A DNA stretch of 64,000 nucleotides from a virus (lineage: Duplodnaviria > Caudoviricetes): IMG/VR virus record IMGVR_UViG_3300028833_000086, positions 1-64,000 of that record. One strand, written 5' to 3'. Positions within the stretch are counted from its first letter, which is position 1. Each line of letters opens with the position of its first letter. The notes beneath the pieces are model-generated. The model had not been told where the DNA came from. It saw nothing but the letters and a program-made list of their open reading frames with translations, and searched no databases. The position numbers and the translations under genes were made by a program. Positions 61 to 53,144 of this stretch are shown one piece after another.

Positions 61-3000
61 TTACAACGAGTATTTACTCAATTTATTTTTACCGAGGGAT
101 GTCCCTATCGTCATCGATTGTACAATCTTTTCAAATGTAGGATCGCTCTTTGCCTTCTGTACGAAGTCTTCATAACTTGTTACATTAGGTAGAGCAAATG
201 ATACATTCATGCCGTTGACTGTAGTGTTACCACCAATATTACTAATGGTCTTAGGATTCATTGCGGCAAGAGGCTGCATCATTTTAAAGATACCTTGCAT
301 CTGTTTTACACGTTCGAGAGAGAGAACTTCTTCTCCACTACGAGCAAGGATTATACCGTCCTCACCAGTTTTCTTGATTGCGTGACCAATTGTACCACCC
401 TTAGCATATGCGCCTTTTGATATTCTAGTATTTATACCATTACTATCTAATTCGTCTAATAATTTTCTATAATAAATAAAAGAATCATAATAACTTCTAA
501 CTTGTTTTTCCGCATTATCTTTTGCAATTCCATCGGGTAATTTGTTCATATTATTTTTTGCTTGAGTATATGCATTTAAGTAAAATTCATACATTTTCTG
601 ATATTCTTTTCTTTTGGCTTCTAACGCTTTCTCAGTGGAATCATCATTTTCATCATTCTGTTTATACTTTTTATTGGTGCTAGGATCACTATTATTACTA
701 TTCGACGAGCTACTAGGCGTTACATTGATTTGAGCCTGTCTTTGCGCAGCACTAACAGCCGCCTGTGTTGCCACGGTAGCAGCAAGCGCCTGCAATTGTG
801 CAAGCTCATTGGATGCGTTTACATTTGCCGCCGTAATCATATTATTAATAGCGTTTTCGACATTATTAACTGTACCAATTACATCGCTTATACGCGCATC
901 AATGTTCATACCGAATGAAGTATTATCAAGTTCATATAAGAACTCGTCTGCTTCTGTCTGAATAGTTTGCGAGATACCTACGGCACTATCTGCGGTCTGC
1001 TGTATAGCCTGTTCTACCAAACCATCAAGATCGTCAAGACGATCATTGATAAGTTTCTCGAACGAGTTATACATATTATCCATCATCTTTTCTTGATCGG
1101 ACAACCACTGTTCATACTCAGTCTGCTGAAGTTCTTTTTCAGCAGCATTCAGATTATTTGCTAACTCCTGTAAGCGTGCCTGAGTTTCCTCAGAGTCATC
1201 ACCGCCGAGCGCAGATATCTGTTTCTGATAACTTGCAATAGCTTTAGTTTGTTCCGCTACGGTATTCTCATAGTCGTACAAACTCTTTTGAGCTTCCAAT
1301 GCCTCTTTACGTTTGTCAATTGACTTCTGTAAATAATCAAGGAACGTCTCATATCCTTCTTGGATCAGATCTTTAATAGCGTGTTTCTCGTCGTCTATAC
1401 CCTTAATAATATCTTGTTGCTGGTCAATGAGGTCATTACGACGCTCCAGTATCTTCTTATTATTAGGATCATTTGCGAGCTCTTTATTTATTTTCTTTAT
1501 CTCATCGGCATATGTCTCATTTTGCTTTTCAAGTATCTTTAAGTTATTAACATGTAATCCTTGTACAGCAAGCGCAGCATCACTCATATTACCATTTGCA
1601 TACAAGTCTTCACCGATGTATGCGATCTTTTCGAACATTTGCTCTTCGCCTTGAAGAACATCGATAAGGAAATTATTCTCCTCAGTCAGACGATTAACAG
1701 CGTTGGCAATGTAGTCAAACTTATCCCACTCAAGTTGTCTGAGTTGATCATTGAGGTCGGCGATTGTTGCACCCATCTCAACGATCTGGTCATTAACATT
1801 CTGAAGAGCATCATACATACCCCACCATTGTTCTGAGCCGTATGCAATGTCACCATTAGTTACAGCCTCATCAATGGACGCGGCAAGTGCTTGAGCTTCT
1901 TGTTTAAGCTGTCCGAGCTTCTCCTCATTGCCAGCCTTAAGCTGCTTAATAAGTGCGGCAGATTCGAAATATCCTTCGGACGCTATCTTGTTTTGAATAG
2001 ATCCAATGCGGTTAGCGGCATGATCAATAGCAAGTGCCATTTCTTCGAACTGCTTGGTAATATTGTCGAATCTTGTTTGTGCTAAATTTGCAATCTCTTG
2101 TTCAAGATCTTGAACAGTATCAATACACTCATTTGCGCGATCATAATAATCTTGGAAGTCACTTATTTGCTCTTTGAGCTTTTCGTCAGTAACGGTCTCA
2201 ATATCCATCATACCGTTCATGACTTTATCCATATATACAGGATTGAGTCCGACAGCATACGCTTCTTGCATATACGCATCCGCTGCTTGTTGTTGAAGAA
2301 GAATTTCTTCTTGAAGCTTTTCGTATTTGCCAGTTACGCCGCCAAGACGTTCTTCCCATTTCTTATACGTTGCATCGGCAACCTTGCCGAGATTGGTTAC
2401 GGCGCGCTGGATTTTCTTGATCGCACGTTCTATCCAGTCAAACTTTTGTTTGGAATCAGACTTGCTAGAAGTAGAAGAGGACTTAGACGAATTCCCATCA
2501 TAATTAGGATTTTCAATTTCTACATCTGACTCGTATTTAACTTCAACCCTTTCAAGATAGCTATCAAGATCAGCTTGCGCACTATCTAATTGTTTTTCTA
2601 AGGCTGCAATTTGATATGAATTATTCCCGTCTTCTCTTGCGGTTTTAAGCTGAGATTCAAGACTTTCAACATATTCTAATTTTTTCTTAGCCTCTGCTAA
2701 TCCCTGTATCTTATCAATAGATATATCTAATTGATCACAGAGCTTGATAAGATTTTTAACATCATCTGATGTTTGAATGTCCAAACTATTGGCTAAAATT
2801 CTTGCATTATAATAATCGCTTAACGCTTCAGTAGTAGCTATTGCCCTTAATTCTTCATCGTCAAATGCTCCTAATTCCTTATCGATATCAATATCTGCTT
2901 CTGCCGCCGCTTCTTTTGCTGCCGCATAAGTTTCCATGGTATAACCAAGCCTACTCATAACTACAGCTTCAGCATTGGTTACGCCCATCTCTGTAAGAGT

Positions 3001-6000
3001 TTTCTGCATTAATGCAGCTGTTTCACCAGATGCCTGACTAAGCGCAGGATTAAGACTGTCTACAAGTATAGTAGCGATATTATTAAACGCCTCTTGTACT
3101 TCTTCTTCTTTAGTAGCAAATTCATCTGATAATATCTCAGATGTAGACAAGGTCATGATGAATTCATTTACCGCATCGGTATCAAATCCCTCGCCGCCAG
3201 CCTCTTTAAGTGAAGCATCTAGAGATTCAATCTGAGCCCTAACACTTTCAATTTGTTCTGAGCTTACTTCGCTAATATCAAAACCATCAGTAGACCATAT
3301 AGCCTTATAGGCTTCAGCCATAGAATTAAATACTGGTTTATACTGAGACTCCATATTCTTGAGCATAGTAGAAGCATCAAGAGCCTTATCAAGATCAGAT
3401 GTAGCAAGAGCAAGCATATGGGCAGCTTCTTCATAAGTCTTGGCCGTTCCAAACACTTTCTGATTCCAGACATCTAATGTTTCAGAGGTTTTTATTCCTA
3501 AACTATCAAATTGTTCCCCAGTCATTAGACCAGACTCCATTGCTTTTTTACGAGCCTCGGCGATCTTATTATCTAATGTTGTCCTGTCATTATCTCTAAC
3601 ATTACTGTTATTGAGAAGCCAGTTTATTGCCTCATCATTAAGTAACCCAGTTTCATTAATAACTCTCTGTATTTCTAGTAATACCTTTTCTTGATCTTCA
3701 GAAAAACCAGAGGTCAATCCGCTTAGGTATTTTCTAATATCTTCAGATGTTAAACCGTAATTATTAGCTCTTTCCCCTAATGATCCAAGATATTGTTCAG
3801 CCGTCTGAGATTCACTTTCATTTCGTCTTCTTAATGCAGCTGTTACAGTGGTAGAACGTAAAGTATTATCAACTTCGGAGGCTAATATATCACTCATATA
3901 ATTTTTAAAATATGAGTCTGAACTTAACCAATTTTTAATACTCTTGTTATCTGTTCCAAAATATAGATTTTTTAAATTTTGTTTTAGAGCTTCTTCTGTC
4001 TCTTCAGTATTTTCTTGAACATTTTTGATGTAGCTATCCATCAAAAGGTCGTATAGATCGCCATATTTATCTGCGGCTTCAGTTTCTCCGTAGGCAAGAT
4101 AGGTGGATTGCCTTTCGTCTAATTCTTTTTGTAATTCATCAATATATGCGGTGATATATTCGGCAGTTGTATCATCTGCTTGTGTTCGTGCCTGTTTTAA
4201 TATTTTTATATCATCTTCAATATTTCCAGTAGTAAAATAATGTTCGTTTGTTTTCTCGTCATATTTAACGAACTGGCCGTACCCAAGATTTTGCAAAGCT
4301 TGATATAATGTTGATCCACTATCAAATCCTCTGAATTTACCTTCTTCAAAAAATGCGATAGTTTCTTCGAGTTCATTATTACCCCAGCCCGTCTTGGTTC
4401 CTCTTGCGGTATCTACTGTTTCTTTATTTTTTATTTGTCTATTTGTAATAAGTAATTTATTTTGTGCTTCAAGTCCCGCGTTTACATCTCCAATAAGAGT
4501 ACTATAATTATCAAAAGATTCATTAAGTTCGTCTTGGATATCTTTTAATTCATTTTCAGCCGCAATTATTTCATCCGTAGTTGAACGATTATCCTTAATT
4601 ACTTTATTACAATCTGCAATTCTTTTTGCATAATCCTCAAGGGATTTATTGGTTTCTTGATTTTCGTTTGCGAGATCTCTAGCTGCTTGTTGAGCCTCTC
4701 TGATACTTTGCTTGTATTTTGCATATGCGGTTACGATCACCGTGGCTATTACAGATGCTACGGCAACTCCAATATTTACCATTGCCGACATCTTGGCAGC
4801 ATGTAAAGCAGCTGCTTCTGCTGCGGCGTTTTGTGCATCGGCCAATCCTTCTACTGCGCTTTCGACCTTTGCAATACTTTTGGGAGAAGTACCAATTTGA
4901 GTCATTAAATAATCTTTTGCCTCTTTGGTTATTTTCTTCCCTCTTAAATCATTAAGATCGGTTAGATTATTGGCTACATCTTCAACGCCTAAAATAGTAG
5001 GAGCCGCTATATTAGGAGTCCTTAATGTTTTTACTGCATTTAATAACCCATAATTCTTGTCAGTAAGGACATGCGATTTAGCTGCAACACCAATACCCAA
5101 TCCAGCCAAAGCAGTTCCGACACCACCAAGTAAATCAGTAATTTCCTTAAGACCATTAATGAGTGTAGTACCAAAATCAATTACATCATTAATAAAACCT
5201 GAATCTACAAGACTAGTAATGAGCTCATCAACTGCGTTCTTAAACATAGTCATGTGTGCTTCTACGCTAGTAAGATATTTCTCGTTCTCGCGCATTGCAC
5301 TACCTTCAGCATCTTGAGCCGCCTCATATGCTTCCCGAATAGTATCAGGATTGGTCAAAATACTTGCTGCAATATTTGAACGGTTTTTACCAGCGAGCAA
5401 TTCTACAAGAGCATTGGCTCTGTTTGTACCTGCTTGCCTATCTTCGAGCTGGATCTCCTTATAAATATCTGCAATGTCTTGCATGATTTCATAAGTACTA
5501 CGAAGATTACCATTTTCATTATAGATATCAACGCCCTTGAATCCGTTTGAAGCAACAGCAGTATAATCCATAATGAGCTTACGAGTTTTAGATTCCGTTC
5601 TTACAACAAAATCATCAACACCTTCTCCAAGCTCGGCAAGTTCATCCTTTGCCTCTTTAGTACCCGCAATCCTAAGTGCAATTGTTCTAATACCAGTACC
5701 AGTTTTAAGAGCATCCTGAGTGATGACGTTACCACCAACTACAAGCGCAAGCGCCTCATTTAAATCATTACCCTGAGTAGTCAGTGCTGCTGCAGAGTTT
5801 TGAAGGGCAGTTGCAAGCTGATCAGTAGCAATAGGAAATTCATTACCAAGTTTATTAATCTTGTCGACGATTTCCATTTTATCAAGTTCAGCATATGCCT
5901 GAGATGCAGAGACAAGTGCCTGAGTTGCGCTATTAATATCTTGGAACTCAGATACGTTCATAAGGATCTGAGCTGCCTTTGCAGACTCAGCAGCTTCAGT

Positions 6001-9000
6001 AAGCGACTCACCTATACGCATCCAGTCAGCTGTAGATTGCTCAAGAGTAAGAGCAGAGGAACCTATGGCGTCAGCAGTATCGAACAATGTCTGTTGATAT
6101 CTTTCAAGAGAGTATCTTGTCTCATCAGATACCTTCATCATTTCTATCAATGCAGAATCATATTGCTTTACGACAGTAACTGCTTCACGCATATAGCGAA
6201 TGATGTCATAGAATGAGAAGAACTGTGCCAGCATCTGATAATTTTTGTGGCGCCATTCTTTCATAAAATTACCGAAGAATGTTCTATCGGACTTACTTAC
6301 CGTACCAGTAAGTTGAGAAATCTCTTTAGCCCAACCCTTATATTCTTCAGTTAATACTTCTCTAGCGTCATCATTTGCCACTTCTTGAAGTTGCCTTCTA
6401 AGTTCTCTTACACGAGACAGAACGGCAGGATCAGTCTTAACTTCGTTAATCTGTAGGTTATCTAATTTTCTGATAAGACCTTTTACGTCAAGCTTGTCTA
6501 CAACGGTTTGATTAATCGCTTCTCCGACAGTTTTTTGAAGATTTATTAATTCCTCTGTTATCGATTCAGTATCTATTTCAGAATAGTCATTATTATTTTG
6601 AGCGGTTTTAAATATATTTTCGAGCTCTTCGATTCTTTCTTTTGACTTTGTTATTGTGTCTTGTGCGGACTTGGAAAGATTTTTATCCTTGCCTTTATTA
6701 ATAGTATTATTTATACCAGCTATTGCGTTTAAAAAACCATTAATCTCTTTAGCTTTAGAGATTAAAGAATTAGATATTATGTCTAAATTATTTATTCCGT
6801 TTCTAATACCTTGAATTGCATCTAAACGTATCTGAACGGAATTTTCATTTGGTTCGTCAATAGAAGATAAAAGTATTTGCCCATTTTCGATTAATTCATC
6901 TTTTATAATTTGTAATGCATTTTTTAAAGTTTCATCTGTTGTTGATGCTAATATTTCGTTTATCTTTGTAATATAATCATTAATACCTTTATGTAAATTA
7001 TTTGAATTACTTCCTGATATATCTTCTTCTATATTTGTCCCAACAATAAACATATCCAACATAGATTGAAAAGGCATTTTTGTTGGAGCTTTTTCAGTGA
7101 AAAAATCCGAACCATTATATAGCTTATTTAGCTTATCATTTGAAATTATTGCATTATTTTTTATTGCCTTATCAGCTATTGTAAATAAATTTGAATCTAT
7201 AAAATTACTTAATTCATTTTTATTTTTAATATCGGTTCCAAGGTTATTAACTAATTCTTCGATTATGTTGGAAACAATATTTAGTTTTTGTATTTCATCT
7301 TCAGTTAGGGGTATCAACTCCTTATTTGTTACATCGACAAATTCACCTTGCTTATTTCTCTCATAGATAGAATAATTATTATCGGTTATTTTATTTAAAA
7401 AAGAACCTCTTAACAATCGTTCGGTATCCTTATCATTAAAGGAAATAATATCATCACCTTGTAATGTAACTCGTGATAAAAATTGGGCCGCTAATGATTT
7501 GATAATAGTATTTTTGAAAGCGTCTTGAATTTCGTTTTTATTATTATTGAGTAAATTGGAATAATCTATTGTAGATAATTTTCCAGAGCCAAAATCAATA
7601 ATTGAAGAAGCGAACTCATCAAAGGTGTTACTATAATTCCCTTTCTTTTTTTCAAAATCTACTTGCTTGATTTTATTTGATAAAGCTGAAAAATCATTTA
7701 TCAAATCTGCATATGATGGTATGACTACTCCGCTTGGATGGTTGTGAACTTTTTCTACCGTGTATGCACTCACTGGTGTGGAATGTGTTGAATCAGATTT
7801 TAATGCAGTGATAGCACTTTTTTCTTCATATATTTTATTATTATTACGATCTTTCGTAACATGAAAGTGCATTTCTTTAGATAGATCAATATCATTAGAG
7901 GTTAAATTATCAATAAAATTATCATATATTTTATCTATGATTTTTATTGTGTTAAGTTTTTTTTGTAATTTTTTTGTAGCTTTTTTAGCTTTTTCAGATA
8001 TATTATTCGGATATATCATCGTTTTATATTTATTATTATATTGTTCAGATGCGATATCCTCTAAGACATTATCATTTTTACTGGAGTTAATTATTGACAA
8101 TAATATTTTTTCTTGTTTATTTAAAAACTTTATTAATGATTCATCTAAATTATTTCCGATATTTGTATTATATTGTTTGATTAATTTTTCAAAATTAGAG
8201 GATGTATTTTTATTATTTTCTTTTTCATTAATATCTTTTGATTTATTAGAAATTCCTTTTTTAACATTAATCGTAGCACTATTTATTGTTTGTTTTGCAT
8301 TAGCAATATTCTCAGTTCCTTTAATGTTAATCGTTGCGCTATTAACATTTATGTTAGCCTTTTCAATGTTTTGATGTGCATTTGTCGTAGTTACATTTTC
8401 ATTAGTGTTTGTGGCCTCCGCTACAGTTTTATAACCCTTGGTAAGCATTGTATTAATAAGCTTACCAATCTCATTATCCTGATATTGCGGTGCAACTTTA
8501 AAGTCAACTCCACTCTTGAGAACATCATCTACAAATCTTTTTATACTTAATTCACTACCAAGTCCCTTTTCTTGTACTGTTTGCATGTCATACAATTTAT
8601 TAAAACGTTGAAACAGTTTTGACATTTGCTGTGCTTCTTGAGCTTTGACTTTAGATTCTTCTGAACTACTGGTGGTAGATTTAAATGCCTGAAGTGCATC
8701 ATCATATCCATTTCTAAGCATTGCATCTATAATGCGTCCAGTAGTTGAAGATGCGATAGCTTTTGGAGATCCAAATTCTGTGACACCAACTTTTCTTAAA
8801 TCTTTAACAAAACTCTCAATATTTTTAAAGTTTAGTTTATCATTAAACTCATCAGCTAATAGTTCATGAAAACGTTTATTGGCAAGAGCAATTAATTCAT
8901 CACGATTGGCAACTAAATTTGCCTCCTGTGTTTTGCTGGTGGTATTAACTTTTGCATCCGTTATATTTACATTTGCATTAGTGACTTTCTGTTCTGCGTT

Positions 9001-11097
9001 TTGTACATTATCTACTTTTTTATCTTTTTTAGATTCTTTAGAAATTTCTTGAGTAGTTTTAATCTCCGACTTAGATGTAATAGATGCTATATTTGCATTA
9101 GTAAATGTAGTATCGGCATTGGCTATATTGATTGTTGCTGTACCAACTTCAATGGTGGCGGCATCAATTTTCTGTATAGCATCTTTAATCTCTTCAGCCA
9201 CAGATTCACTTACGCCTTCCACGTCTTGTGAAAGTTCACCTAAAATTTCTTTCTGTCTTTTGATAAGAGATTCAAGTTGTTGATTATAGAAGGAAAGAGA
9301 TTTATCACTACCTCCTCCTTGAATCTTACTAGAAAGTTCTTTTATCCTGCGAGAGTTATCATTAAACTCGCCAATTAATGGGTTGGCTCCGTTAGGGTAT
9401 TTGGTCTTCTTTATGGCTTCAGGAACCGAACCATATATACCATCTACGAGTCCTTTGACAATCTGCTTTAACCTATTCTTATATAAATCAGAATAATCTA
9501 ATGTAGCCCCCGTTTCCTTTATTGCATTAACGAGCTGCATAATTTTATTAGGATCAATTTTGTCTAACGCCTCAAGTTCTTCGAATTGTTTATTAATCTC
9601 TTCAGATTGATTTTTACCCTCAACAATATTCGCATTTACATTAATTGGTACTGCTCCAAGTTCGTTAGATAATTGCTCTCTAAAATTTTTAATTGCAGAG
9701 TCTTCAATTTTTAATTTACCGACAGAGAAACCGTCTTTACTTAAACTATCTTTAAGTTTAGATATAGATCTATTTAAAGCATCAGAGAAGTCTTTACCAA
9801 ATGCGTCTTGTAAACCATAAATACGTTCAGCAAGTTTTTCGTCTATTTTTCCGTTCTTAGTATTTGCAAGCTGTTCTTTAATTGATTTTATATATTTCTT
9901 AGTCTGTGTAGTTCCCCATGAAGGATTAATTATTGCGTCTAATTCTACAGGGTTTTTATCAACATACTTTTGAAGATTATTAATTACCGCTTTAAGTTCT
10001 GCGATTAATTCAGCTCCAACGCCTTCTTTAATTACAACATCAGTGGTAATATCAGATGTAGTATTTTTTTTATCAGATTTTGTCTTAACTTTAGATTCAG
10101 TAACTGCTTTTTTAGTAGGCTCTTTAATTTCTGAAGGAACACTTTCAAGAGATTTTTTTATTGTGTTTATTGATGAAGTAAAATCGTTGGAAATATTCTC
10201 CATGACTGCATCAATAAAATCATATATTTCATCAAAGGTTCTATACACCTCTCCTTGAAGATTCGGGAAAGATTTGATCACCTCGTTAATACTTGCAGTC
10301 ATTTCTTTAGTTACGTTGTCGCCAGCACGTTCGCTGAGATCTTCCATTCCATAAAACGCGCTAAATGACTCTTTTAATTTATTTAAAGCATTTACTTGCG
10401 CTTTTGCCGCTTTTTCTATATCATCGGCAGATCCGAAATTAAGTTTTAAATCATTATATTTTGCTGTAGTATCTGCTAAATCTTTTAAATCTTTTTGTAG
10501 TTTTGTTTTTACTTTTTCAAATTCATCGTTTATATCATCAGCATTTGATAATTTAAAAATCTTTGAAACATCAATACTTTCTTCATCCACCTCGGCATTA
10601 ACAGATTGTAGTAATTGCTCGAATGATTTCTTTAATTTTTCTCCACCTTCTTGTATTGATTTGGTAGCATTATTAAGACTAGTGTCAATTCCAGTAGCCA
10701 TATTCCCAATTTCTTTGGTTATATTTCCAGCAACTTGTTTAACACCAACATCTCCAACATTAGATAATTGTTTGGAGAAATTATTCATTCTAGATGATAA
10801 AGCATCCACTTCAACTTTAACATCGGCAATTGCCGTGGCCAACATTGATAAATCGCTAAGCGTTTTAGGATCAAGTCCGCCCGCCTTAGAAAGCACATCT
10901 ATTTTATCTGTCATGGCGCTAATCTGTTTTACGGCACCAGCTAATGCTTTTTCTACATTTTTAAGCCTTGGCTCAAGATCCTTATCGAGTTTCATGTTGG
11001 CTAAGTCTTTGCTCATGCCTTGGATTTGGCTGCTAATCTCTTGAGTATTTTGGAGATCAACAGCAATACCAACGCTGATTACTTTTGATTTGCTCAT
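61..11097 (-). CDS. Tail tape measure protein (3678 aa) with an internal JAB/MPN-like motif
   Basis: Very long helical/coiled-coil ORF downstream of the tail genes. TMP core (YDSALIEMMKVSDET...KINKLGNEF...GTGIRTIALRI...LAGKNRSN). HNHPSGVVIPSYAD near aa 1118. Confidence 0.93.
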   Translation of the reverse strand: MSKSKVISVGIAVDLQNTQEISSQIQGMSKDLANMKLDKDLEPRLKNVEKALAGAVKQISAMTDKIDVLSKAGGLDPKTLSDLSMLATAIADVKVEVDALSSRMNNFSKQLSNVGDVGVKQVAGNITKEIGNMATGIDTSLNNATKSIQEGGEKLKKSFEQLLQSVNAEVDEESIDVSKIFKLSNADDINDEFEKVKTKLQKDLKDLADTTAKYNDLKLNFGSADDIEKAAKAQVNALNKLKESFSAFYGMEDLSERAGDNVTKEMTASINEVIKSFPNLQGEVYRTFDEIYDFIDAVMENISNDFTSSINTIKKSLESVPSEIKEPTKKAVTESKVKTKSDKKNTTSDITTDVVIKEGVGAELIAELKAVINNLQKYVDKNPVELDAIINPSWGTTQTKKYIKSIKEQLANTKNGKIDEKLAERIYGLQDAFGKDFSDALNRSISKLKDSLSKDGFSVGKLKIEDSAIKNFREQLSNELGAVPINVNANIVEGKNQSEEINKQFEELEALDKIDPNKIMQLVNAIKETGATLDYSDLYKNRLKQIVKGLVDGIYGSVPEAIKKTKYPNGANPLIGEFNDNSRRIKELSSKIQGGGSDKSLSFYNQQLESLIKRQKEILGELSQDVEGVSESVAEEIKDAIQKIDAATIEVGTATINIANADTTFTNANIASITSKSEIKTTQEISKESKKDKKVDNVQNAEQKVTNANVNITDAKVNTTSKTQEANLVANRDELIALANKRFHELLADEFNDKLNFKNIESFVKDLRKVGVTEFGSPKAIASSTTGRIIDAMLRNGYDDALQAFKSTTSSSEESKVKAQEAQQMSKLFQRFNKLYDMQTVQEKGLGSELSIKRFVDDVLKSGVDFKVAPQYQDNEIGKLINTMLTKGYKTVAEATNTNENVTTTNAHQNIEKANINVNSATINIKGTENIANAKQTINSATINVKKGISNKSKDINEKENNKNTSSNFEKLIKQYNTNIGNNLDESLIKFLNKQEKILLSIINSSKNDNVLEDIASEQYNNKYKTMIYPNNISEKAKKATKKLQKKLNTIKIIDKIYDNFIDNLTSNDIDLSKEMHFHVTKDRNNNKIYEEKSAITALKSDSTHSTPVSAYTVEKVHNHPSGVVIPSYADLINDFSALSNKIKQVDFEKKKGNYSNTFDEFASSIIDFGSGKLSTIDYSNLLNNNKNEIQDAFKNTIIKSLAAQFLSRVTLQGDDIISFNDKDTERLLRGSFLNKITDNNYSIYERNKQGEFVDVTNKELIPLTEDEIQKLNIVSNIIEELVNNLGTDIKNKNELSNFIDSNLFTIADKAIKNNAIISNDKLNKLYNGSDFFTEKAPTKMPFQSMLDMFIVGTNIEEDISGSNSNNLHKGINDYITKINEILASTTDETLKNALQIIKDELIENGQILLSSIDEPNENSVQIRLDAIQGIRNGINNLDIISNSLISKAKEINGFLNAIAGINNTINKGKDKNLSKSAQDTITKSKERIEELENIFKTAQNNNDYSEIDTESITEELINLQKTVGEAINQTVVDKLDVKGLIRKLDNLQINEVKTDPAVLSRVRELRRQLQEVANDDAREVLTEEYKGWAKEISQLTGTVSKSDRTFFGNFMKEWRHKNYQMLAQFFSFYDIIRYMREAVTVVKQYDSALIEMMKVSDETRYSLERYQQTLFDTADAIGSSALTLEQSTADWMRIGESLTEAAESAKAAQILMNVSEFQDINSATQALVSASQAYAELDKMEIVDKINKLGNEFPIATDQLATALQNSAAALTTQGNDLNEALALVVGGNVITQDALKTGTGIRTIALRIAGTKEAKDELAELGEGVDDFVVRTESKTRKLIMDYTAVASNGFKGVDIYNENGNLRSTYEIMQDIADIYKEIQLEDRQAGTNRANALVELLAGKNRSNIAASILTNPDTIREAYEAAQDAEGSAMRENEKYLTSVEAHMTMFKNAVDELITSLVDSGFINDVIDFGTTLINGLKEITDLLGGVGTALAGLGIGVAAKSHVLTDKNYGLLNAVKTLRTPNIAAPTILGVEDVANNLTDLNDLRGKKITKEAKDYLMTQIGTSPKSIAKVESAVEGLADAQNAAAEAAALHAAKMSAMVNIGVAVASVIATVIVTAYAKYKQSIREAQQAARDLANENQETNKSLEDYAKRIADCNKVIKDNRSTTDEIIAAENELKDIQDELNESFDNYSTLIGDVNAGLEAQNKLLITNRQIKNKETVDTARGTKTGWGNNELEETIAFFEEGKFRGFDSGSTLYQALQNLGYGQFVKYDEKTNEHYFTTGNIEDDIKILKQARTQADDTTAEYITAYIDELQKELDERQSTYLAYGETEAADKYGDLYDLLMDSYIKNVQENTEETEEALKQNLKNLYFGTDNKSIKNWLSSDSYFKNYMSDILASEVDNTLRSTTVTAALRRRNESESQTAEQYLGSLGERANNYGLTSEDIRKYLSGLTSGFSEDQEKVLLEIQRVINETGLLNDEAINWLLNNSNVRDNDRTTLDNKIAEARKKAMESGLMTGEQFDSLGIKTSETLDVWNQKVFGTAKTYEEAAHMLALATSDLDKALDASTMLKNMESQYKPVFNSMAEAYKAIWSTDGFDISEVSSEQIESVRAQIESLDASLKEAGGEGFDTDAVNEFIMTLSTSEILSDEFATKEEEVQEAFNNIATILVDSLNPALSQASGETAALMQKTLTEMGVTNAEAVVMSRLGYTMETYAAAKEAAAEADIDIDKELGAFDDEELRAIATTEALSDYYNARILANSLDIQTSDDVKNLIKLCDQLDISIDKIQGLAEAKKKLEYVESLESQLKTAREDGNNSYQIAALEKQLDSAQADLDSYLERVEVKYESDVEIENPNYDGNSSKSSSTSSKSDSKQKFDWIERAIKKIQRAVTNLGKVADATYKKWEERLGGVTGKYEKLQEEILLQQQAADAYMQEAYAVGLNPVYMDKVMNGMMDIETVTDEKLKEQISDFQDYYDRANECIDTVQDLEQEIANLAQTRFDNITKQFEEMALAIDHAANRIGSIQNKIASEGYFESAALIKQLKAGNEEKLGQLKQEAQALAASIDEAVTNGDIAYGSEQWWGMYDALQNVNDQIVEMGATIADLNDQLRQLEWDKFDYIANAVNRLTEENNFLIDVLQGEEQMFEKIAYIGEDLYANGNMSDAALAVQGLHVNNLKILEKQNETYADEIKKINKELANDPNNKKILERRNDLIDQQQDIIKGIDDEKHAIKDLIQEGYETFLDYLQKSIDKRKEALEAQKSLYDYENTVAEQTKAIASYQKQISALGGDDSEETQARLQELANNLNAAEKELQQTEYEQWLSDQEKMMDNMYNSFEKLINDRLDDLDGLVEQAIQQTADSAVGISQTIQTEADEFLYELDNTSFGMNIDARISDVIGTVNNVENAINNMITAANVNASNELAQLQALAATVATQAAVSAAQRQAQINVTPSSSSNSNNSDPSTNKKYKQNDENDDSTEKALEAKRKEYQKMYEFYLNAYTQAKNNMNKLPDGIAKDNAEKQVRSYYDSFIYYRKLLDELDSNGINTRISKGAYAKGGTIGHAIKKTGEDGIILARSGEEVLSLERVKQMQGIFKMMQPLAAMNPKTISNIGGNTTVNGMNVSFALPNVTSYEDFVQKAKSDPTFEKIVQSMTIGTSLGKNKLSKYSL

Positions 11098-20866: not shown

Positions 20867-20906
20867 AGGTTTAAACCTTCACACTAAAGTAGTGACTCTC
20901 TTTTTA

Positions 20907-22025
20907 TTACTGGGTAATAGTCCATACACCGAACTGTCTATTTGCCTTAACAGCAATAGCCTGTTCGTACTGGAGCTCATACTTACCGATATCGTCAATA
21001 CGTCCGTGCTCTTCGCCCTTCTCGGTGATCTCATCGATCTCAGTTTCACCACGAGTTACGAACTCAACAATCTTGTAGTCATCGCTAGGAAGGATGTAAA
21101 GCTTGGTGTCGTCCATAAGCTTGGTGGTAAGGGTCTTGTCAGCGAATCTCTGAGCAACCTCGATTAGAGGAGTTCCCTCGTACTCGCCGAGTCTTCCCAT
21201 CTGAGCCATTGCTTCCTTCTGAGATTCAGAAGCCCACTGAACATTTGCAAGACCAGTAATCTTTCTAAGAGCGTTAGCGGTACCGATAATAACAGCGCTA
21301 CCATAGAGAGCTCTTACGTTGTCGACGATCTCGTCGAAGTCGTCCTTGGTTGCAGTGGTAAGAGATCCAGTATCTACGAAACCAGCGGTAACTCTGAGGC
21401 TAGATACAGCGTTGCTGATTGCGCCAAAGATGATGCCCTGATTCTTAAGCATGATAGATCTAACAAGCATAGCGATAAGCTTTGCAAAATCTTCCTGTCC
21501 AAGGAGATACTTGTTGATATCAATACCAACAGCTGCGCCGTAGCGAGCCATAGGAAGAGTGTACTTAGATCCAAGTGCAGGTCTCTGAAGAATGTAATCG
21601 TGATGTGACTTACCAACGGTAGCGATGGAAAGAATAACATTCTCATCTTCAACGGTGAATTCAACACCATCTCCATTGGCAATATTTCTGTAGTCAACAA
21701 GCTTGTTGAACCACTCAGACTCGTGATATCCTACATCAAGAGCATCGTCAACGATCTCCTCAACAAGGTCAAAACATCTACGAATCTGTCCACTCTGCCA
21801 TGCGCGCTTAAAATCTCTGGGAGAGAACTTCTTCTCAAGTCCGCAGAAATCAAGTAAAAATGCACGAAGCTTGTCATTAGCTTCTGCTTTTGAAACTACC
21901 TTACCCTCGTCATCAATGATCTGCTCTCCACGATAAAGGTCGAACATGAGGTTTCTGATAGCGTCTTCATTTGTCTCGTGCTTTGCAAATACTGCAAGCT
22001 CATTTTCAGAAAAATTAATTCTCAT
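20907..22025 (-). CDS. Major capsid protein
   Basis: 372 aa, strong codon bias, position after protease/scaffold and decoration genes as in SPbeta-like phages. Confidence 0.85.
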   Translation of the reverse strand: MRINFSENELAVFAKHETNEDAIRNLMFDLYRGEQIIDDEGKVVSKAEANDKLRAFLLDFCGLEKKFSPRDFKRAWQSGQIRRCFDLVEEIVDDALDVGYHESEWFNKLVDYRNIANGDGVEFTVEDENVILSIATVGKSHHDYILQRPALGSKYTLPMARYGAAVGIDINKYLLGQEDFAKLIAMLVRSIMLKNQGIIFGAISNAVSSLRVTAGFVDTGSLTTATKDDFDEIVDNVRALYGSAVIIGTANALRKITGLANVQWASESQKEAMAQMGRLGEYEGTPLIEVAQRFADKTLTTKLMDDTKLYILPSDDYKIVEFVTRGETEIDEITEKGEEHGRIDDIGKYELQYEQAIAVKANRQFGVWTITQ

Positions 22026-38817: not shown

Positions 38818-40587
38818 TTATTTTATAATCGAACTTTTACGAATAGAAGATCCAAGTAAGTCTAACAAAGATTTTGTACTCTCATCATTTTTACGTTGCA
38901 TCTCGCGACCAATGATCTGAGCCACATAATAATTATATTCAAGACTTGAGAATCTATCCTTACGCATACCTGAATGTTCTTTGAGTTTAACCTTGTTATC
39001 TACAATCTTACCTTCGAGGTTAACCATCTCATTAACCAACGCAGTTGTCTGTGCGTACGGCATAAGTAATTTCACTTTTTCTTCAGTCGACATAGATGCA
39101 TAGCCAGCAACTTTTTTTACTACTTGCTCTGCATCATATTCATTGATTAATAGTGAGAGATTACCAGTCTGTATACCCGCACGAAGAGCAGTAGCCATTT
39201 CAGAGTTCTCTTGTGCATACGCCTTAATAGTCCATACGCACTTATTTGCGTTGGGCTCTCTACAACGTTCCGCCATGGCTACATCATTGCAACTACACAT
39301 AGCATCATATGTTTCACCAGTCTCCGCATCAAACTGCGGACGAGCGATAAAGTCATATACTGGAAGTCCAATACCATTTGTATCCAGTACTAGATCGGTA
39401 CACTTATAATGATTAAAATATCGCATTATAATAATACCAACCTCTTCGGTTGTTTTACCTTCAAAAGTTTCCACATAAACAATATGTGACGCCATTCCGT
39501 TATTACTAGGCGTTGCAATATTAATTTCTATTGCAGTAGCATCGTTATTGGTTGCCTTACTTGCCATGAGCGCAACATCCACAGATAATATTCGACGTTC
39601 ACCTTCTGCAAGATCAGGAACATTTATACCACGTTTTTCATAAAACTCAAATGGCAAGAAAGCATTCTTAATCACACGACAACTTGACACTTCGTCGTAT
39701 TTATAAAAAGCATCTTCCGCTTCGCCATAGAACAAAGCCTCACGTTCCATCCTAAATGAAATAGGATCAAAATCCGCTTCAGACATTTCGTCTTCAACAG
39801 CTTCTTTTGAAAAGATACCTTCTTCAATGCCAACTTCATATGGTAAGCCGCAGCAAAAATATCTCTTATTGTCATCTAGCATAAGCGCAGCATCAGACTT
39901 GCACTTTTCAAATATCCACGAACTCTTATAGTATGCGGATGTCGTATACATCTCTATATTTCTTTCCTGATATTTGGGATTATTTTTATATTCAGGCAGA
40001 TTCATATAGGGAGGTTTTCTGAGCGAGGTCAAGAATTTTTTAAGAACGTCTTGTACTATTTTTTTCTTAACCATTCTTGATTCATCTATTATTACTATAG
40101 TTGCACGATTACTACGAGCGGTATCACTTGCCGTAACAACTTTAATCCACGATCCATTTTTAAAAGTAACATGTGGATTATTTATTGCTGTAGTGATTTC
40201 TTCAATTTCATTTGATAGATTACTGCTACCCCAGTCATGTAATTTCATGAAGTCGGTTTCAATCTTACCTATAATCTCAACCGCCTGAGACTTAACTCCA
40301 GATGCTACACATACTTTTGTAGCGGGATAAAGAATACACCTAATCACACAATAAAGTGCAATTAAATACGTTTTGCCTAAGCCTCGGCTCGCGATCCAAT
40401 TGAAGACCGTACACAAATTCATTACATACAACAAAATTTTTTGAAATATACCCAATTGAATATTTAAAAACTCAGCAGCAAAGCGTTGAGGATTCGCACG
40501 ATAAAACGCTGTCCATATTGCCACACCTTCCATTAGGTTATCATATTTTTCCTGTTGTATCTGAGCAAAGCTCTTTTTATTACTCAT
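38818..40587 (-). CDS. terL: Terminase large subunit
   Basis: Walker A ASRGLGKT, Walker B IIIDESR, nuclease LSVDVA...NDAT, LDTNGIG, RKDRFSS. Confidence 0.93.
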   Translation of the reverse strand: MSNKKSFAQIQQEKYDNLMEGVAIWTAFYRANPQRFAAEFLNIQLGIFQKILLYVMNLCTVFNWIASRGLGKTYLIALYCVIRCILYPATKVCVASGVKSQAVEIIGKIETDFMKLHDWGSSNLSNEIEEITTAINNPHVTFKNGSWIKVVTASDTARSNRATIVIIDESRMVKKKIVQDVLKKFLTSLRKPPYMNLPEYKNNPKYQERNIEMYTTSAYYKSSWIFEKCKSDAALMLDDNKRYFCCGLPYEVGIEEGIFSKEAVEDEMSEADFDPISFRMEREALFYGEAEDAFYKYDEVSSCRVIKNAFLPFEFYEKRGINVPDLAEGERRILSVDVALMASKATNNDATAIEINIATPSNNGMASHIVYVETFEGKTTEEVGIIIMRYFNHYKCTDLVLDTNGIGLPVYDFIARPQFDAETGETYDAMCSCNDVAMAERCREPNANKCVWTIKAYAQENSEMATALRAGIQTGNLSLLINEYDAEQVVKKVAGYASMSTEEKVKLLMPYAQTTALVNEMVNLEGKIVDNKVKLKEHSGMRKDRFSSLEYNYYVAQIIGREMQRKNDESTKSLLDLLGSSIRKSSIIK

Positions 40588-41659
40588 CTAATGCGCCACC
40601 ATAGATCTTATTAAATATGTCTTCTGAATCCTCATCTATACTAAACTCTGGACGGGTGGCAGCATATTGACGCATATAGTCATCGTACATTTTAGAATAC
40701 TTATTCTTAATACCAAGCATTTTACATAAGTGTCCCAAGAAATAAACACTGATATATAATCCAATCTTATCTACATCTTTAAACTGGGGGTCTATATCGG
40801 CAACAGGACGTGTCTCTTCAAGTTTCTGTATAAGTTGTCCGTAAGACTCCACGCCACCAGTAACATCATTCTTATTTTGTTTAGGCGTAATATCACCAGT
40901 TTCCATAAGCTTTTGCAATGTAGCGGTTAACTTATCAGTGGATTCATTGTTAAGTCGCGCCTTATGCAATTCAAGCTGAGTGAATGCAATATTCTTAAAT
41001 AACTCTTCTTGAGCTTTAGAATTACATTCATATCGATCACACCAGTCAGAATACTCTGTTTCAAGAAAATGCAAATCATGCAAGCTGTATTCATTACCAA
41101 AATGTTTCTTGGCATTTACAAATATCTCATCGCTCTCGTCAAACTTCTCTTCAACTGGACGCTGCTCATAACTTCCAAACTTACTATCTTTCCACTTACG
41201 CCCCTTATACTGCGGCAGACTTTGTATCTGCGTAATATAAACAGCGAAAGGAGATTGATAAGTTTTTCTGTTGGTCGGATCATTCTTCTGATTATCCACA
41301 CCATTAACAGCGTTCATATACACTTCGTCATAATAAGGTTTATCCATAAGCTCAAGAACCTTCATTACGCTTTCCTTTGTTTCGTTAGGTGGATCAGATT
41401 CTCTTTTTCTTTGTTCTACCAACATCTGCACGCATTCTTTACATATAGGAAAATATCCTGCCTTAAAGCGTGCGTCTTTATAGAAGCCAGTATGATAACC
41501 AGTGTTACGCTTCCAGTTGTCGCACTTAGGACAATACATAATGTCACAGTCAAGCATTTTATTATAGGTGTCAGCAAACTTGCTATAAATCCTGCGCATG
41601 TCGGCGACACCAAGTTTTGATTCCTCGCCTAATGGCGCGGGTTGTAAATTCGTTGCCAT
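40580..41659 (-). CDS. Terminase-associated protein (probable small subunit, Zn-binding)
   Basis: CPKC...PICKEC; overlaps the terL start; SPbeta-like synteny. Confidence 0.65.
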   Translation of the reverse strand: MATNLQPAPLGEESKLGVADMRRIYSKFADTYNKMLDCDIMYCPKCDNWKRNTGYHTGFYKDARFKAGYFPICKECVQMLVEQRKRESDPPNETKESVMKVLELMDKPYYDEVYMNAVNGVDNQKNDPTNRKTYQSPFAVYITQIQSLPQYKGRKWKDSKFGSYEQRPVEEKFDESDEIFVNAKKHFGNEYSLHDLHFLETEYSDWCDRYECNSKAQEELFKNIAFTQLELHKARLNNESTDKLTATLQKLMETGDITPKQNKNDVTGGVESYGQLIQKLEETRPVADIDPQFKDVDKIGLYISVYFLGHLCKMLGIKNKYSKMYDDYMRQYAATRPEFSIDEDSEDIFNKIYGGALDE

Positions 41660-41684
41660 ATTTCACCATTTTATCCTTTTAATC

Positions 41685-41714
41685 AAAAGCCCTCGGCGCT
41701 TAACGACCGAGGGC
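41685..41714 (-). terminator. Terminator-like hairpin closing the ncRNA cluster
   Basis: GCCCTCGG...CCGAGGGC followed by TTTTGATT. Confidence 0.7.
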
Positions 41715-41715
41715 A

Positions 41716-41770
41716 AACATTTGTAGCGCGACTATTTTTATCTTTAGCGGTCGCGACGCTTATGACAGTC
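41716..41770 (-). ncRNA. H-type pseudoknot unit C followed by CAAAUGUU
   Basis: Stem 1 AGCG/CGCU, stem 2 CGCGAC/GUCGCG, A-rich loop 3. Confidence 0.65.
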
Positions 41771-41798
41771 TATAGGCTCCATGCCTCCATGGAGTCAG

Positions 41799-41855
41799 TG
41801 CAGCAGCAAGGAGTTGCACCTTGCCTCGGGGAATTCTCCCCAAACTGTAGCTGCA
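41799..41855 (-). ncRNA. tRNA-like element lacking a D-arm
   Basis: Acceptor-like UGCAGC/GCUGCA, one central hairpin, T-arm CAAGG-UGCAACU-CCUUG. Confidence 0.55.
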
Positions 41856-42005
41856 TAACAAAGGTTCCCGTAGGAACCTTTTCAGGTCACGGGCCCGCAA
41901 GCTTCCGTAACACGATCATTACTACCGCCTGTAATTACAGTCGATATGTATCATAGTAACTTAGCAGGAATATACGTCTCCCATAACGTTTAGATTTTAA
42001 TCAAA

Positions 42006-42035
42006 ATTTCAATATGCCTCACGTTACTATGAATA
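42006..42035 (-). ncRNA. Solitary CRISPR-repeat-like unit (type I-B-like)
   Basis: 30-mer TATTCATAGTAACGTGAGGCATATTGAAAT ending in an ATTGAAAT handle; no array. Confidence 0.5.
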
Positions 42036-42039
42036 AAGC

Positions 42040-42100
42040 AGCCGAGGGGGGATCGAACCTCCATTAAGATACGCACTAATTGCGTCCACAGCCATCGACC
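42040..42100 (-). ncRNA. tRNA-like element lacking a D-arm
   Basis: GGUCGA/UCGGCU acceptor-like stem, ACGCA/UGCGU hairpin, GGAGG-UUCGAUC-CCCCC T-arm. Confidence 0.55.
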
Positions 42101-42145
42101 CCAAAAAACAAAAGACGCCATAATTGATCAAATTTCATAACAGCT

Positions 42146-42235
42146 ATCGTTATCGTTCGTCGCTTATATAGGTGGACGTTCACCCATCTTTATCGTCCCT
42201 CGCTTCTTTTATGGTGGAGGTTCACCAATCTTTAT
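42146..42235 (-). ncRNA. Two tandem ToxI-like pseudoknot repeats (42 and 40 nt)
   Basis: AUAAAGAU-(U/G)GGUG-AAC(C/G)UC-CACC...GA(G/C)G; compensatory change in stem 2. Confidence 0.75.
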
Positions 42236-42250
42236 ATGACGTCTTCGAAG

Positions 42251-42539
42251 ACTCCTTCTACACATGACAGATGAGTTGAAAATTTTGCGCCCCCTCCACC
42301 TATAGGACATAAGCGAGAGGAGACAAAACATTTGAACCCCGAGCTTTTATATACCGCATCTCGGGTAGCGGGAAACATTTGGTTGCGTACCTTTTATTTA
42401 TGTCGATATACGCTCCCGACACAACATTTGCAAAAAACACTATGTATAAAACATAACGTCTTTAGTAACTCCTTCTACACATGGTAGTCGAGCTATCTGC
42501 GCCCCCTCCACCGCTAGGACAGCAGTGGAAGGAACGCAA
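42251..42539 (-). repeat. Duplicated hairpin scaffold (copies 42251-42325 and 42468-42539)
   Basis: Identical blocks actccttctacacatg (42251, 42468) and tgcgccccctccacc (42286, 42498). Confidence 0.85.
42327..42430 (-). ncRNA. Two tandem CptI-like pseudoknot units (49 and 47 nt) delimited by CAAAUGUU
   Basis: Three CAAATGTT at 47/49-nt spacing; each interval folds as an H-type pseudoknot with an A-rich loop 3. Confidence 0.78.
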
Positions 42540-42600
42540 TCACGGAAGGAAGAATCTATGAATATAATATAGAGGACAGAATTAGCCCTCTACGAGTGGA

Positions 42601-43818
42601 TTAATTAAGTTTATAAGTGTATTCGCACGTCTTTCCTTTACCACTTTCAAACACAAACATTGAAGCTCCAGCGTTTGAAGTTTTGTTAAGTGACATTCCA
42701 AATGGATCTACACCAATTATACTTCTAATATGGATTGCTTCGGCATTAATACCAACCTCAGTATTTTCGGCATGGTGTTTATGACCAGCTATTATATAAT
42801 CAAAGGACATATTATACGCTCGACCAATATCGTTTATAGCATCGGCAAGATTTTTAACCTCACCATGTATTCCAAGGACTGAGCTTCCCGCGAACACCCC
42901 GTAGTTCATTCCTGTCTCATTTTCCGTAACAATAATATTCTTATTATTTTTGAGACGCTCTTTTAAAAATGAACTAATTACCTTGCTCATATTTTCGTCG
43001 GGAAAAGCATTTTTGGGTGCCCCACACAGTCTAAGTTGATTATGATTGCTATCAACAACCATCTGGAAGTCGATAACTACATGTTCGCTCAAGGCGGTCA
43101 GCCAGTTTGCCATATACTCTGCATATAATAGAGAAGACTCAATCACTCCATATCTTAATTGCATTAACTGAGAATTAAGTCTTAACATCCCTTGGATACC
43201 ATCCCCAAGCTCCCACACAGATAATTTACGTATCTTTTCTCTTTTTATTGTTGTAACAACATCGGAGAGAAGAGCATTCATTCTCTGTTCAAATATCTCG
43301 GGGCTATAAGCGTTTACTATATTGCCAAATAAATCCTTGATCTCAAATTCTATACCATAATGAGCATCGGCTAAACACAGGAGATACTCCTTGTCGCTTT
43401 CGCCCACCGTCACAACCTTAGGAATCTTGATAGGCGGAAGAGTCTTAATTGCTTCTTTAATATGTTCAACAATCAATTCATCACGCGCTAATTCGCGTAT
43501 GTTTTTATTAAACTCAATTTTTTCACTTTGAATTTTATAACGCTCTTTTCGAAGACTACAAAGTTTATCATCAAATCCAAGGTTTCCTGTTGATCCATAT
43601 TTATTTTCATAATACTTCTTAACAGCATAGCCGCCAAATAAAGTACCATTTGCTTTTCTTAGTACATCGGTTGCGTAGGGAATATTATATATATCTTTTA
43701 ATTCTTCCCAATCTATATCAAGATTACCATCGAGCTTGTCCACGATATCCGACAGACACTGTTCATAATCTTCAACCGACATTCCTATCTTCTCAAGTTC
43801 TAATTCGATATTCTCCAT
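42601..43818 (-). CDS. Calcineurin-like metallophosphoesterase with N-terminal coiled coil
   Basis: ADAHYG, LGD, SNHNQ, IHGE and GHKHH motifs. Confidence 0.88.
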   Translation of the reverse strand: MENIELELEKIGMSVEDYEQCLSDIVDKLDGNLDIDWEELKDIYNIPYATDVLRKANGTLFGGYAVKKYYENKYGSTGNLGFDDKLCSLRKERYKIQSEKIEFNKNIRELARDELIVEHIKEAIKTLPPIKIPKVVTVGESDKEYLLCLADAHYGIEFEIKDLFGNIVNAYSPEIFEQRMNALLSDVVTTIKREKIRKLSVWELGDGIQGMLRLNSQLMQLRYGVIESSLLYAEYMANWLTALSEHVVIDFQMVVDSNHNQLRLCGAPKNAFPDENMSKVISSFLKERLKNNKNIIVTENETGMNYGVFAGSSVLGIHGEVKNLADAINDIGRAYNMSFDYIIAGHKHHAENTEVGINAEAIHIRSIIGVDPFGMSLNKTSNAGASMFVFESGKGKTCEYTYKLN

Positions 43819-52349: not shown

Positions 52350-53010
52350 CCTTGTAGTCAACCCTCAAAAGTTGAGTAGGGCTGTCTGTAAGCGTTTACT
52401 CCGTAAACGCGGTATGAATCATCCCTAAGCGTAGGCATTAGAAGTCGGCGCATAGTCGGGGGACAGGGACATCCCGACAAATGTGGGCACTTTGGTCAGG
52501 CGATGGCTGAGGTGACGAGTACGGCGACGTAAGTCGCTCCACTACATAGAGGCTATTTGGCAAAGTTGCATAGCAACTGTCGTGAGTCTGCTCACCGTAA
52601 GCGTGAACATCATAGGCACGCAAGTCGGGTGGAAGAGTGGCAGATTTGGCAGAGCGAAGTTGCGAAACACCGTTGCGGAGGCGTCAGGAAGTCGCATTAC
52701 CCGACTATGAGGGATCAAATAATGCGAGGACGTAGCGAGTAAGTGGACGGTAGGCAAGCGTACGACCGAATAGGGGGTAGACGAGGGAGTGCTTGATATG
52801 TGTTCCCTGACGAAGACCGTGGTGGGGATTACCCATCGAGGTACGCAGTACCGCCATCGAGGTACGCAGTACCGAGATAACACGGCGTCGAGGTGTGGGA
52901 TAACCGTGCAATGCGGACAACCCAGTAATAGCCTAAACAACCATCAACCATCAGCTATGGAGCGCACAGGTTTGACACTGTGGGACGGTTCGAATCCGTC
53001 ATGATGGTGT
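52350..53010 (+). ncRNA. Candidate large structured non-coding RNA ending in a tRNA-like element
   Basis: GC-rich with no convincing ORF; many hairpins; long-range CATAGTCGGG/CCCGACTATG; T-arm GACGG-TTCGAAT-CCGTC. Confidence 0.45.
52833..52874 (+). repeat. Perfect 21-bp tandem duplication
   Basis: ccatcgaggtacgcagtaccg x2. Confidence 0.95.
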
Positions 53011-53144
53011 CGGGACATAGCGTCCCACCCCTGCAACGCTTGTTAGTAAGCACCATAACAGTTGACACAATTCGAATGGTGTTGAACACGGTGAGGGGAT
53101 AAACAATGAACCGCCCAAAGGGGCAGAAAGACGAGGTATTAATT

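Follow-up and report, generated by a model that had tools for sequence, protein, structure and literature searches.

A phage-borne island of small structured RNAs with a predicted CptI-family antitoxin unit and no toxin gene

The 64,000-nucleotide stretch of DNA analysed here (referred to below as the window) covers positions 1 to 64,000 of the virus record IMGVR_UViG_3300028833_000086, which comes from a large gut or rumen phage, is 122.7 kb long and has a completeness of 97% by CheckV. In the gap between an exonuclease gene and a packaging-associated gene, it contains an island of small structured RNAs on the minus strand. The best-supported description of this island is one of two layers, namely a conserved frame made of a hairpin and tRNA-like units, and an accessory cargo specific to this phage. 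The cargo would consist of three pseudoknots resembling CptI, the RNA antitoxin of the nuclease toxin CptN, one of which (unit A2) appears to be a bona fide member of the CptI family, together with two ToxI-like pseudoknots. On balance, we favour the reading that this strand-specific island combines a core with a toxin-less antitoxin cargo that would counter a CptN-based host defence.

The gap is 941 nt long (41660-42600) and holds no credible open reading frame (ORF), with none exceeding 48 aa on its minus strand. The minimum free energy (MFE) of this strand is −318.5 kcal/mol, as compared with −269.4 ± 5.8 kcal/mol in dinucleotide shuffles (z −8.5), while folding of the plus strand reaches a z of only −3.1. 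Its content comprises five H-type pseudoknots with an A-rich linker, a sixth and compact one, a G.U-rich hairpin in two copies, two tRNA-like units lacking an anticodon, and a terminator. A mechanical search for this class of pseudoknot (H-type, A-rich linker) found four in the 0.94-kb gap, where about 0.14 would be expected (background of 0.11-0.15 per kb per strand over the whole 122.7-kb genome). The initial annotation of this DNA had described 41685-42592 as a region without a credible ORF and full of structured units, and its coordinates and boundaries stand essentially as they were given. An Rfam search of the region returned no family at the gathering thresholds and nothing meaningful at E values up to 10, a null result that covers the ToxI, CRISPR-DR, tRNA, tmRNA, ROOL/GOLLD and riboswitch families; the whole region is thus not explained by one Rfam family, an explanation that the same annotation had considered. 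Nor did blastn of the gap against 50,697 phage records give any match.

Unit A2 and the cptIN loci of Clostridia

The five pseudoknots share a common plan, in which a stem S1 of 4-6 bp holds the 5′ strand of stem S2 inside its loop, followed by an A-rich linker and the 3′ strand of S2. Stem sequences vary between the copies, yet both stems always pair, as read from the sequence. The delimiter CAAAUGUU occurs at four sites, and three copies of a motif ending in it also emerge as an internal repeat (D1). Tandem units are joined at the toxin cleavage-site motif CA|AAUGUU, and the last site is followed by the terminator, just as in the bacterial arrays described below. The first delimiter and unit A1 lie at 42380-42430 (49 nt if cut at CA|AA), with an S1 of 6 bp, an S2 of 5 bp and an A-rich linker that has a U at the kink position. 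Unit A2 (42333-42379, 47 nt) has S1 CCGC/GCGG, S2 CCCGAG/CUCGGG, the linker AUAUAAAAG and the 3′ tail GUUCA, and the third delimiter (42327-42334) closes the tandem pair A1-A2. The remaining unit, PK5, is found with the fourth CAAAUGUU(U) at 41715-41760; it has S1 AGCG/CGCU, S2 CGCGAC/GUCGCG, a long A-rich linker and the tail CUACA, and its 5′ delimiter is missing.

When one genome per prokaryotic species was scanned for three CAAATGTT motifs spaced 28-52 nt apart, the matches listed were mostly unrelated tandem repeats, and among them one set of loci stands out, from uncultured Clostridia, Oscillospiraceae and Lachnospiraceae. These bacterial loci have the order sigma-70 promoter, short 5′ hairpin, two units of 46-48 nt, delimiter, terminator, ribosome-binding site (RBS) and an ORF of ~160 aa. 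Their array units are pseudoknots with a geometry matching that of the phage units. The ORFs that follow the arrays are CptN homologues (PDB 4RMO, E 1.7e-22 and 3.1e-18), for which neither Pfam nor PADLOC has a model. Such homologues are present in 15 of the 399 sampled Clostridia genomes, each with an array upstream, one of which is almost identical to the published E. rectale repeat.

To quantify the family match, a covariance model (R1) built from 25 CptI units, all of them bacterial, was run over the whole window with the filters off. Its single significant match is A2, which is hit at full length with 41.2 bits and an E value of 4e-8 (model match 42379-42334), and the next-best match in the window scores 12 bits; for reference, true cptI units adjoining cptN on other contigs score 46-56 bits. 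In a bacterial array that lies ahead of an intact CptN homologue (L347), the second unit is identical to A2 at 39 of 47 positions (z 11.9 against shuffles), and the first bears a weak likeness to A1 (z 3.5). The identical delimiter, the unit length and the geometry upstream of CptN homologues, along with the R1 match of A2, agree well with the proposal in the initial annotation that the CAAAUGUU-delimited units are type III antitoxin-like.

CptI of E. rectale is a 45-nt H-type pseudoknot with a one-base L1 and a 9-nt A-rich L2, of which the kink U and a neighbouring A are required for antitoxicity, and it is cleaved 3′ of the unit's final A (Rao et al. 2015, PMC4627078). Like this RNA (E. rectale CptIN, PDB 4RMO), A2 (47 versus 45 nt) is an H-type pseudoknot of two stems with a very short L1. 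It retains the 9-nt A-rich L2 with the kink-U and A positions, as well as the single-stranded 5′ and 3′ tails, AA(U)GUUU and GUU(C/G)A, and the tandem phage units meet at an A|AA site. Its L2 differs at only one of nine positions from the E. rectale-type L2 of the L343 array. Thus, A2 can be regarded, on the evidence of sequence, as a bona fide CptI-family member, and A1 and PK5 as CptI-like by shape and delimiter. The units of a natural antitoxin array can diverge strongly, as a bacterial array upstream of a distant CptN-like gene (L356) shows; its three pseudoknot units of 36-37 nt differ completely in their stems and have no delimiter in common.

No toxin gene accompanies the phage units. 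CptN protein and PF13958 queries gave nothing at E values up to 10 against the phage genome at its 97% completeness, and tblastn with nine toxins reached a best E value of 0.13, with no trace of cptN. The gene after the array is the 359-aa packaging-associated gene, not cptN. With A2, the phage carries a toxin-less copy of a host-type RNA antitoxin, and since it has this CptI copy and not the nuclease gene, the RNA would most likely disarm that host defence. In the literature, we found no report of a phage-borne CptI mimic. RNA antitoxin mimicry as such is known.

Family-B pseudoknots and the conserved frame

The second pseudoknot family (family B) comprises the tandem pair B1 (42194-42235, 42 nt; S1 GGUG/CACC, S2 CCUC/GAGG) and B2 (42154-42193, 40 nt; S2 CGUC/GACG), in which the S2 pairing is kept by compensatory changes. 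The pair is also seen as the internal repeats D5 and D6 (40-42 nt), and a partial third family-B delimiter (42153-42146) follows B2. ToxN (PF13958) is present in 32 of 400 sampled Clostridia genomes, and the ToxI arrays upstream of it have the 5′ module GGUGAAC-xxx-YACC in common with family B, at identical spacing. Like Clostridial ToxI, family B also has a covarying S2 and A-rich tails, and its 5′ delimiter is identical to the start of the L370 and L374 ToxI arrays. Unlike Clostridial ToxI, it has a loop of 9-11 nt (versus 6-9 nt) and a unit length of 40-42 nt (versus 34-38 nt).

The statistical tests are mixed. A hidden Markov model (HMM) built from 27 ToxI units and run on the phage genome gave B1 as its top match, but at a non-significant E value of 1.3. 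A covariance model (R2) of 12 consistently aligned Clostridial ToxI units, with S2 as its structure, scored B1 at 23.2 bits (E 5.8e-4 over the window) and B2 at 6.6 bits, below significance. A 24-mer of family B, with up to 3 mismatches allowed, had no counterpart in 401 Clostridia genomes, and Rfam gave no ToxI match for the family. Because of these mixed results, we call family B ToxI-like, not ToxI. For this family, the antitoxin-mimic reading of the initial annotation is moderately supported.

A further pseudoknot, composed of GGUGAACGUCCACC, a loop containing UAAGU and finally GACG, is conserved in ~30 related GC-rich soil or wetland phage contigs (IMG/VR L390-L435; for example, L405:2557-2584), where it is flanked by hairpins between a 143-aa gene and a 144-aa gene and belongs to no Rfam family. 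We have not used it as support for family B, since the shared 14-mer was imposed by the family-B search pattern and the ToxI model gives no match.

From the comparison with related phages, it is clear that part of the island is conserved. In relatives at 69-83% protein identity, the exonuclease gene is still directly followed by a CU-rich leader, a long G.U-rich hairpin (loop GUCCUR), a tRNA-like unit and a small hairpin; the module of leader and long hairpin (H1) follows this gene in L003, L004, L006 and L021. In the present phage, the leader (42552-42539) leads into H1 copy 1 (42538-42498, loop GUCCUA), and H1 copy 2 (42286-42326) has a degenerate 5′ arm with the loop and 3′ arm unchanged (repeat D3, 81%). 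Of the 19 pairs in the long hairpin, 9 show compensatory changes among six sequences, and six G.U pairs fit a minus-strand RNA only, which fixes the RNA strand as minus.

The same six pairs would become A.C mismatches on the other strand, which argues against a function of the repeats at the DNA level, as sites (pac/cos) that the terminase would recognize. The location of the gap, immediately upstream of both the small-terminase-like gene and TerL, would suit such sites. On the other hand, folding is strongly asymmetric between the strands, the stems covary while their sequences differ, and the gaps of relatives are only 110-370 nt long with different content, so that we find this explanation scarcely credible.

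The two tRNA-like units are located at 42036-42104 (unit 1, with an acceptor stem, a short-looped middle hairpin, a T arm with the GGUUCGAUC loop and no D stem) and 41797-41856 (unit 2, with the T-loop UGCAACU, of a type also seen in L011, L024 and L025). A 7-bp hairpin (41777-41793) stands 3′ of unit 2, an arrangement that recurs with changed stems in L021 and L006. In general, the acceptor stem of these units is 6-7 bp long, the D arm is replaced by a single-stranded linker and the anticodon arm by a hairpin whose loop has 4-5 nt, and the T arm carries the conserved loop GGU(U/G)C(G/A)A. The units are not called as tRNA by ARAGORN, which reports no tRNA or tmRNA within the window or in the relatives, nor by Rfam at E values up to 10. 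Covariation of the acceptor and T stems across 10 units and the conserved T-loop nevertheless bear out the initial annotation, which had recognized two tRNA-like units here.

At the syntenic spot, which begins 45-550 nt past the end of the exonuclease gene, distant relatives (47-55% exonuclease identity) possess a genuine tRNA-Asn(GTT). The tRNA-like units could in principle be decaying copies of that tRNA gene, with the rest of the gap being spacer. Such decay would hardly leave acceptor and T stems held by compensatory changes across the 10 units, nor an anticodon arm that is consistently a short-looped hairpin. Moreover, a model built from the tRNA-like units does not match the real tRNA-Asn genes of the distant relatives, and the surrounding modules are themselves conserved and structured; we therefore regard this origin as very improbable. 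The carriers of tRNA-Asn(GTT) include L013, L042, L051-L073 and others, many of them from human-gut assemblies, with some contigs of 0.2-1.9 Mb. Two other assignments were dropped as well, a two-piece or degenerate tmRNA because the tRNA-like units are self-contained and ARAGORN reports none, and a Y-RNA (YrlA) on topology, since the open acceptor and closed middle arm of the present units are the opposite of the YrlA arrangement.

Non-coding RNAs flanked by tRNA-like elements are known from MALAT1/mascRNA and the MHV68 TMERs. The island resembles them in having tRNA-like elements directly beside structured RNAs, and differs in belonging to a bacterial virus. Such an arrangement hints at release through cutting by RNase P and RNase Z; the core may accordingly be pictured as a processing and scaffold framework that would be cut by these enzymes at the tRNA-like units. 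A decoy role of the tRNA-like units themselves would be speculation.

In contrast to this frame, the remaining content varies from phage to phage, with gap lengths of ~110-940 nt, so that the site can be seen as a hot spot for RNA modules. The CptI model found no match in 60 related loci (385 kb), and the CptI-like units occur only in this phage and a twin contig of 98.6% identity, in which 13 differences fall within the gap and none inside the pseudoknot units. Some smaller modules are common to several phages. The compact pseudoknot (at about 41989-41966) is common to L003 and L010, with a compensatory change in S1; it lies inside a module (41951-42032) closed by a 10-bp stem (42032-42023 with 41960-41951) that is 89% identical over 36 nt to L003/L007. 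Taken together, the core appears to be conserved with compensatory changes in close relatives, and the antitoxin-like modules appear to be phage-specific accessory cargo; their absence from related loci that conserve the core is the gain and loss pattern expected of accessory counter-defence cargo. A pattern of module gain or loss, and covariation in the core, for which the initial annotation had proposed to align the syntenic gap, are thus observed.

The same annotation had read a 30-mer (42035-42006) at the 10-bp-stem module as a CRISPR-repeat-like RNA anti-CRISPR. This reading finds no support: no CRISPR-DR family of Rfam matches the island at E values up to 10, part of the 30-mer is one arm of the 10-bp stem, and the sequence just after it (42006-41995) copies the local terminator tail.

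A proposed counter-defence role and its alternatives

The mechanism that we propose is drawn by analogy with the pseudo-ToxI RNA of the Pectobacterium phage phiTE. Infection would shut off host transcription, labile host CptI would decay, and CptN, once set free, would abort the infection. The phage RNA would then supply substitute CptI units; CptN would cut them at the delimiters and become locked in an inactive protein-RNA complex, and the infection would go on. We infer that the phage RNA is expressed and processed and that it would neutralize the toxin. CptI-CptN specificity is strictly cognate, and pairs do not cross-react (PMC4627078), so the divergence of the units could be understood if several alleles have to be covered, each unit covering a different one.

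According to the summary of Blower et al. 2012 given in PMC5086642, phiTE escapes via toxin-less pseudo-ToxI repeats. As far as that summary goes, the two cases are alike in being phage-borne, toxin-less and similar to a host antitoxin, with the same proposed mode of action. They differ in that the present RNA is of the CptI family (with possible ToxI-like units), belongs to a Firmicute rather than an enterobacterial setting and is known here from sequence. In addition, where phiTE has expanded identical repeats, the units here are diverged and embedded among tRNA-like and hairpin modules.

Several observations weigh against a counter-defence role. No abortion of phage infection by CptIN has been demonstrated, the tests having been confined to E. 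coli (PMC5086642). Within the gap, no sigma-70-like promoter is found on the minus strand; unlike a CptI locus, the phage array thus has neither a recognizable promoter nor cptN anywhere, its three units are very dissimilar, and other RNA modules interrupt it over ~560 nt. R1 matches neither A1 nor PK5 beyond the 5′ tail, despite their topology, linker style and delimiter, and A2 is therefore the only demonstrable family member. Model R2, besides B1, also matches a single pseudoknot at 20871-20910 on the minus strand (25.4 bits, E 1.4e-4), which directly follows the stop codon of a 372-aa gene (20907-22025) and is itself followed at once by a terminator hairpin. Single R2 units of a similar kind come after genes in three relatives, at L006:7980-8019 (after TerL), L026:2318-2357 and L024:1967-2006. 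Since these matches come after ordinary genes, the family-B fold may be a general intergenic element and not a decoy.

This last point leads to the possibility that the whole island is a housekeeping structured RNA, serving as processing signals, 3′-end protection or a regulator of the packaging operon, and that its antitoxin likeness stems from shared ancestry or from convergent evolution among small A-minor pseudoknots. That the core of hairpin and tRNA-like units is conserved in relatives without CptI-like units is what one would expect in that case, and the unrelated soil-phage pseudoknot, which shares the 14-mer set by the search pattern and likewise lies between two small genes, would fit it too. 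A housekeeping function, however, leaves unexplained why A2 matches CptI at 41 bits with its tails and cleavage motif included, why the delimiter recurs fourfold exactly as in cptI arrays, and why these modules are absent from close relatives. We consider it unlikely.

Complete cptIN loci are present on four IMG/VR contigs (L259, L294, L325 and L326), which are of viral or prophage nature, so the toxin-less array could also be what remains, after decay, of a cptIN locus that once served the phage for addiction or defence, with the toxin lost and the leftover units drifting without function. The phage itself would be a plausible carrier, because it is SPbeta-like and hence probably temperate, with Firmicutes as its probable hosts: its TerL shares 42% identity with the TerL proteins of SPbeta-like Bacillus phages and also matches Clostridium, Clostridioides and Enterocloster phages (among the 399 sampled Clostridia genomes, it has no match). 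The divergence of A1 and PK5 past model detection and the restriction of the units to this phage and its twin are also compatible with decay. Yet the four delimiters, both stems of the three units and the A-rich linkers are all intact, no trace of cptN is left, and the 13 differences of the twin in the gap all lie outside these units. Furthermore, the units are separated by other conserved RNA modules rather than placed beside a gene scar, and the terminator that follows PK5 is conserved and native to the phage, not imported, as relatives have the same terminator-RBS arrangement. A remnant is, in our judgement, quite improbable.

The counter-defence reading, if it holds, has several implications. 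Phage RNA antitoxin mimicry so far rests on one laboratory system, that of phiTE and ToxIN, and CptIN is structurally well known, yet its anti-phage activity has not been shown (PMC5086642). A toxin-less CptI-family unit in a wild gut or rumen phage of Firmicutes would indicate that phages acquire such antitoxin RNAs in nature, and would be indirect evidence that CptIN matters for phage defence in native hosts. The placement of antitoxin-like units in a conserved RNA frame at a variable site also suggests non-coding 'anti-defence islands' that are invisible to protein-based annotation. A bolder version, which we put forward only tentatively, is that the island is a modular RNA-only counter-defence cassette, in which the frame, cut by RNase P and RNase Z, would both receive and release the members of a changing library of CptI-like and ToxI-like mimics, each tuned to a different host toxin allele. 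If true, it would provide the first natural evidence of CptIN acting against phages.

Remaining modules and genomic surroundings

The upstream edge of the island is a terminator-like hairpin with a weak U tail (42569-42593), directly after the exonuclease gene. Beyond H1 copy 1, the remainder of the first scaffold copy (42432-42497) consists of a GUAGAAGGAG box and a 13-bp hairpin (42463-42432) abutting the first CAAAUGUU, and is a 75% repeat (D2) of 42236-42275; the two repeats of the duplicated scaffold, D2 and D3, are 75-81% identical and 212-217 nt apart. The second scaffold copy extends over 42112-42285. Its last stem (42245-42235 with 42122-42112, 11 bp) is homologous to the plain 13-bp hairpin of the first copy and encloses both B1 and B2. 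The internal repeats and the pairing therefore agree with what had been proposed in the initial annotation, that is, a duplicated scaffold, two pseudoknot families and a second pseudoknot pair enclosed by the last stem of the second scaffold. Further downstream, three hairpins occupy 41857-41950, one of them a 9-bp hairpin with a UACG loop (41882-41861).

The island ends in an intrinsic terminator (41680-41714, with the hairpin at 41714-41689), as had been anticipated, followed by the RBS and start codon (41659) of the 359-aa gene. On the minus strand, only two sites resemble terminators: this strong one, at 41714-41689, and the weak hairpin that follows the exonuclease gene. Together with the promoter search, this pattern fits a single putative transcript that would be produced by read-through or be unconventionally promoted.

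The upstream neighbour of the gap encodes an Mre11/SbcD-like exonuclease of 405 aa (42601-43818, phrog_284). Downstream of the gap, the packaging-associated, small-terminase-like 359-aa gene (40580-41659, phrog_3314) overlaps TerL (38818-40587). Elsewhere in the window, a single ORF of 3678 aa occupies 61-11097 on the minus strand, and an intein that contains a LAGLIDADG homing endonuclease domain splits an RNA ligase gene (PF09414; 47147-49159, minus strand). A second stretch of ~700 nt without a convincing ORF (52420-53100, plus strand; GC ~52%) lies at the junction of two divergent gene blocks. It folds with z-scores of just −2.5 (plus strand) and −2.0 (minus strand), has no match in Rfam or ARAGORN, and contains, within its GC-rich sequence, a T-arm-like GGUUCGAAUCC motif at 52987. 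Outside the window, six plus-strand T-loop motifs at 95-98.5 kb of the phage genome suggest a cluster of tRNA genes.

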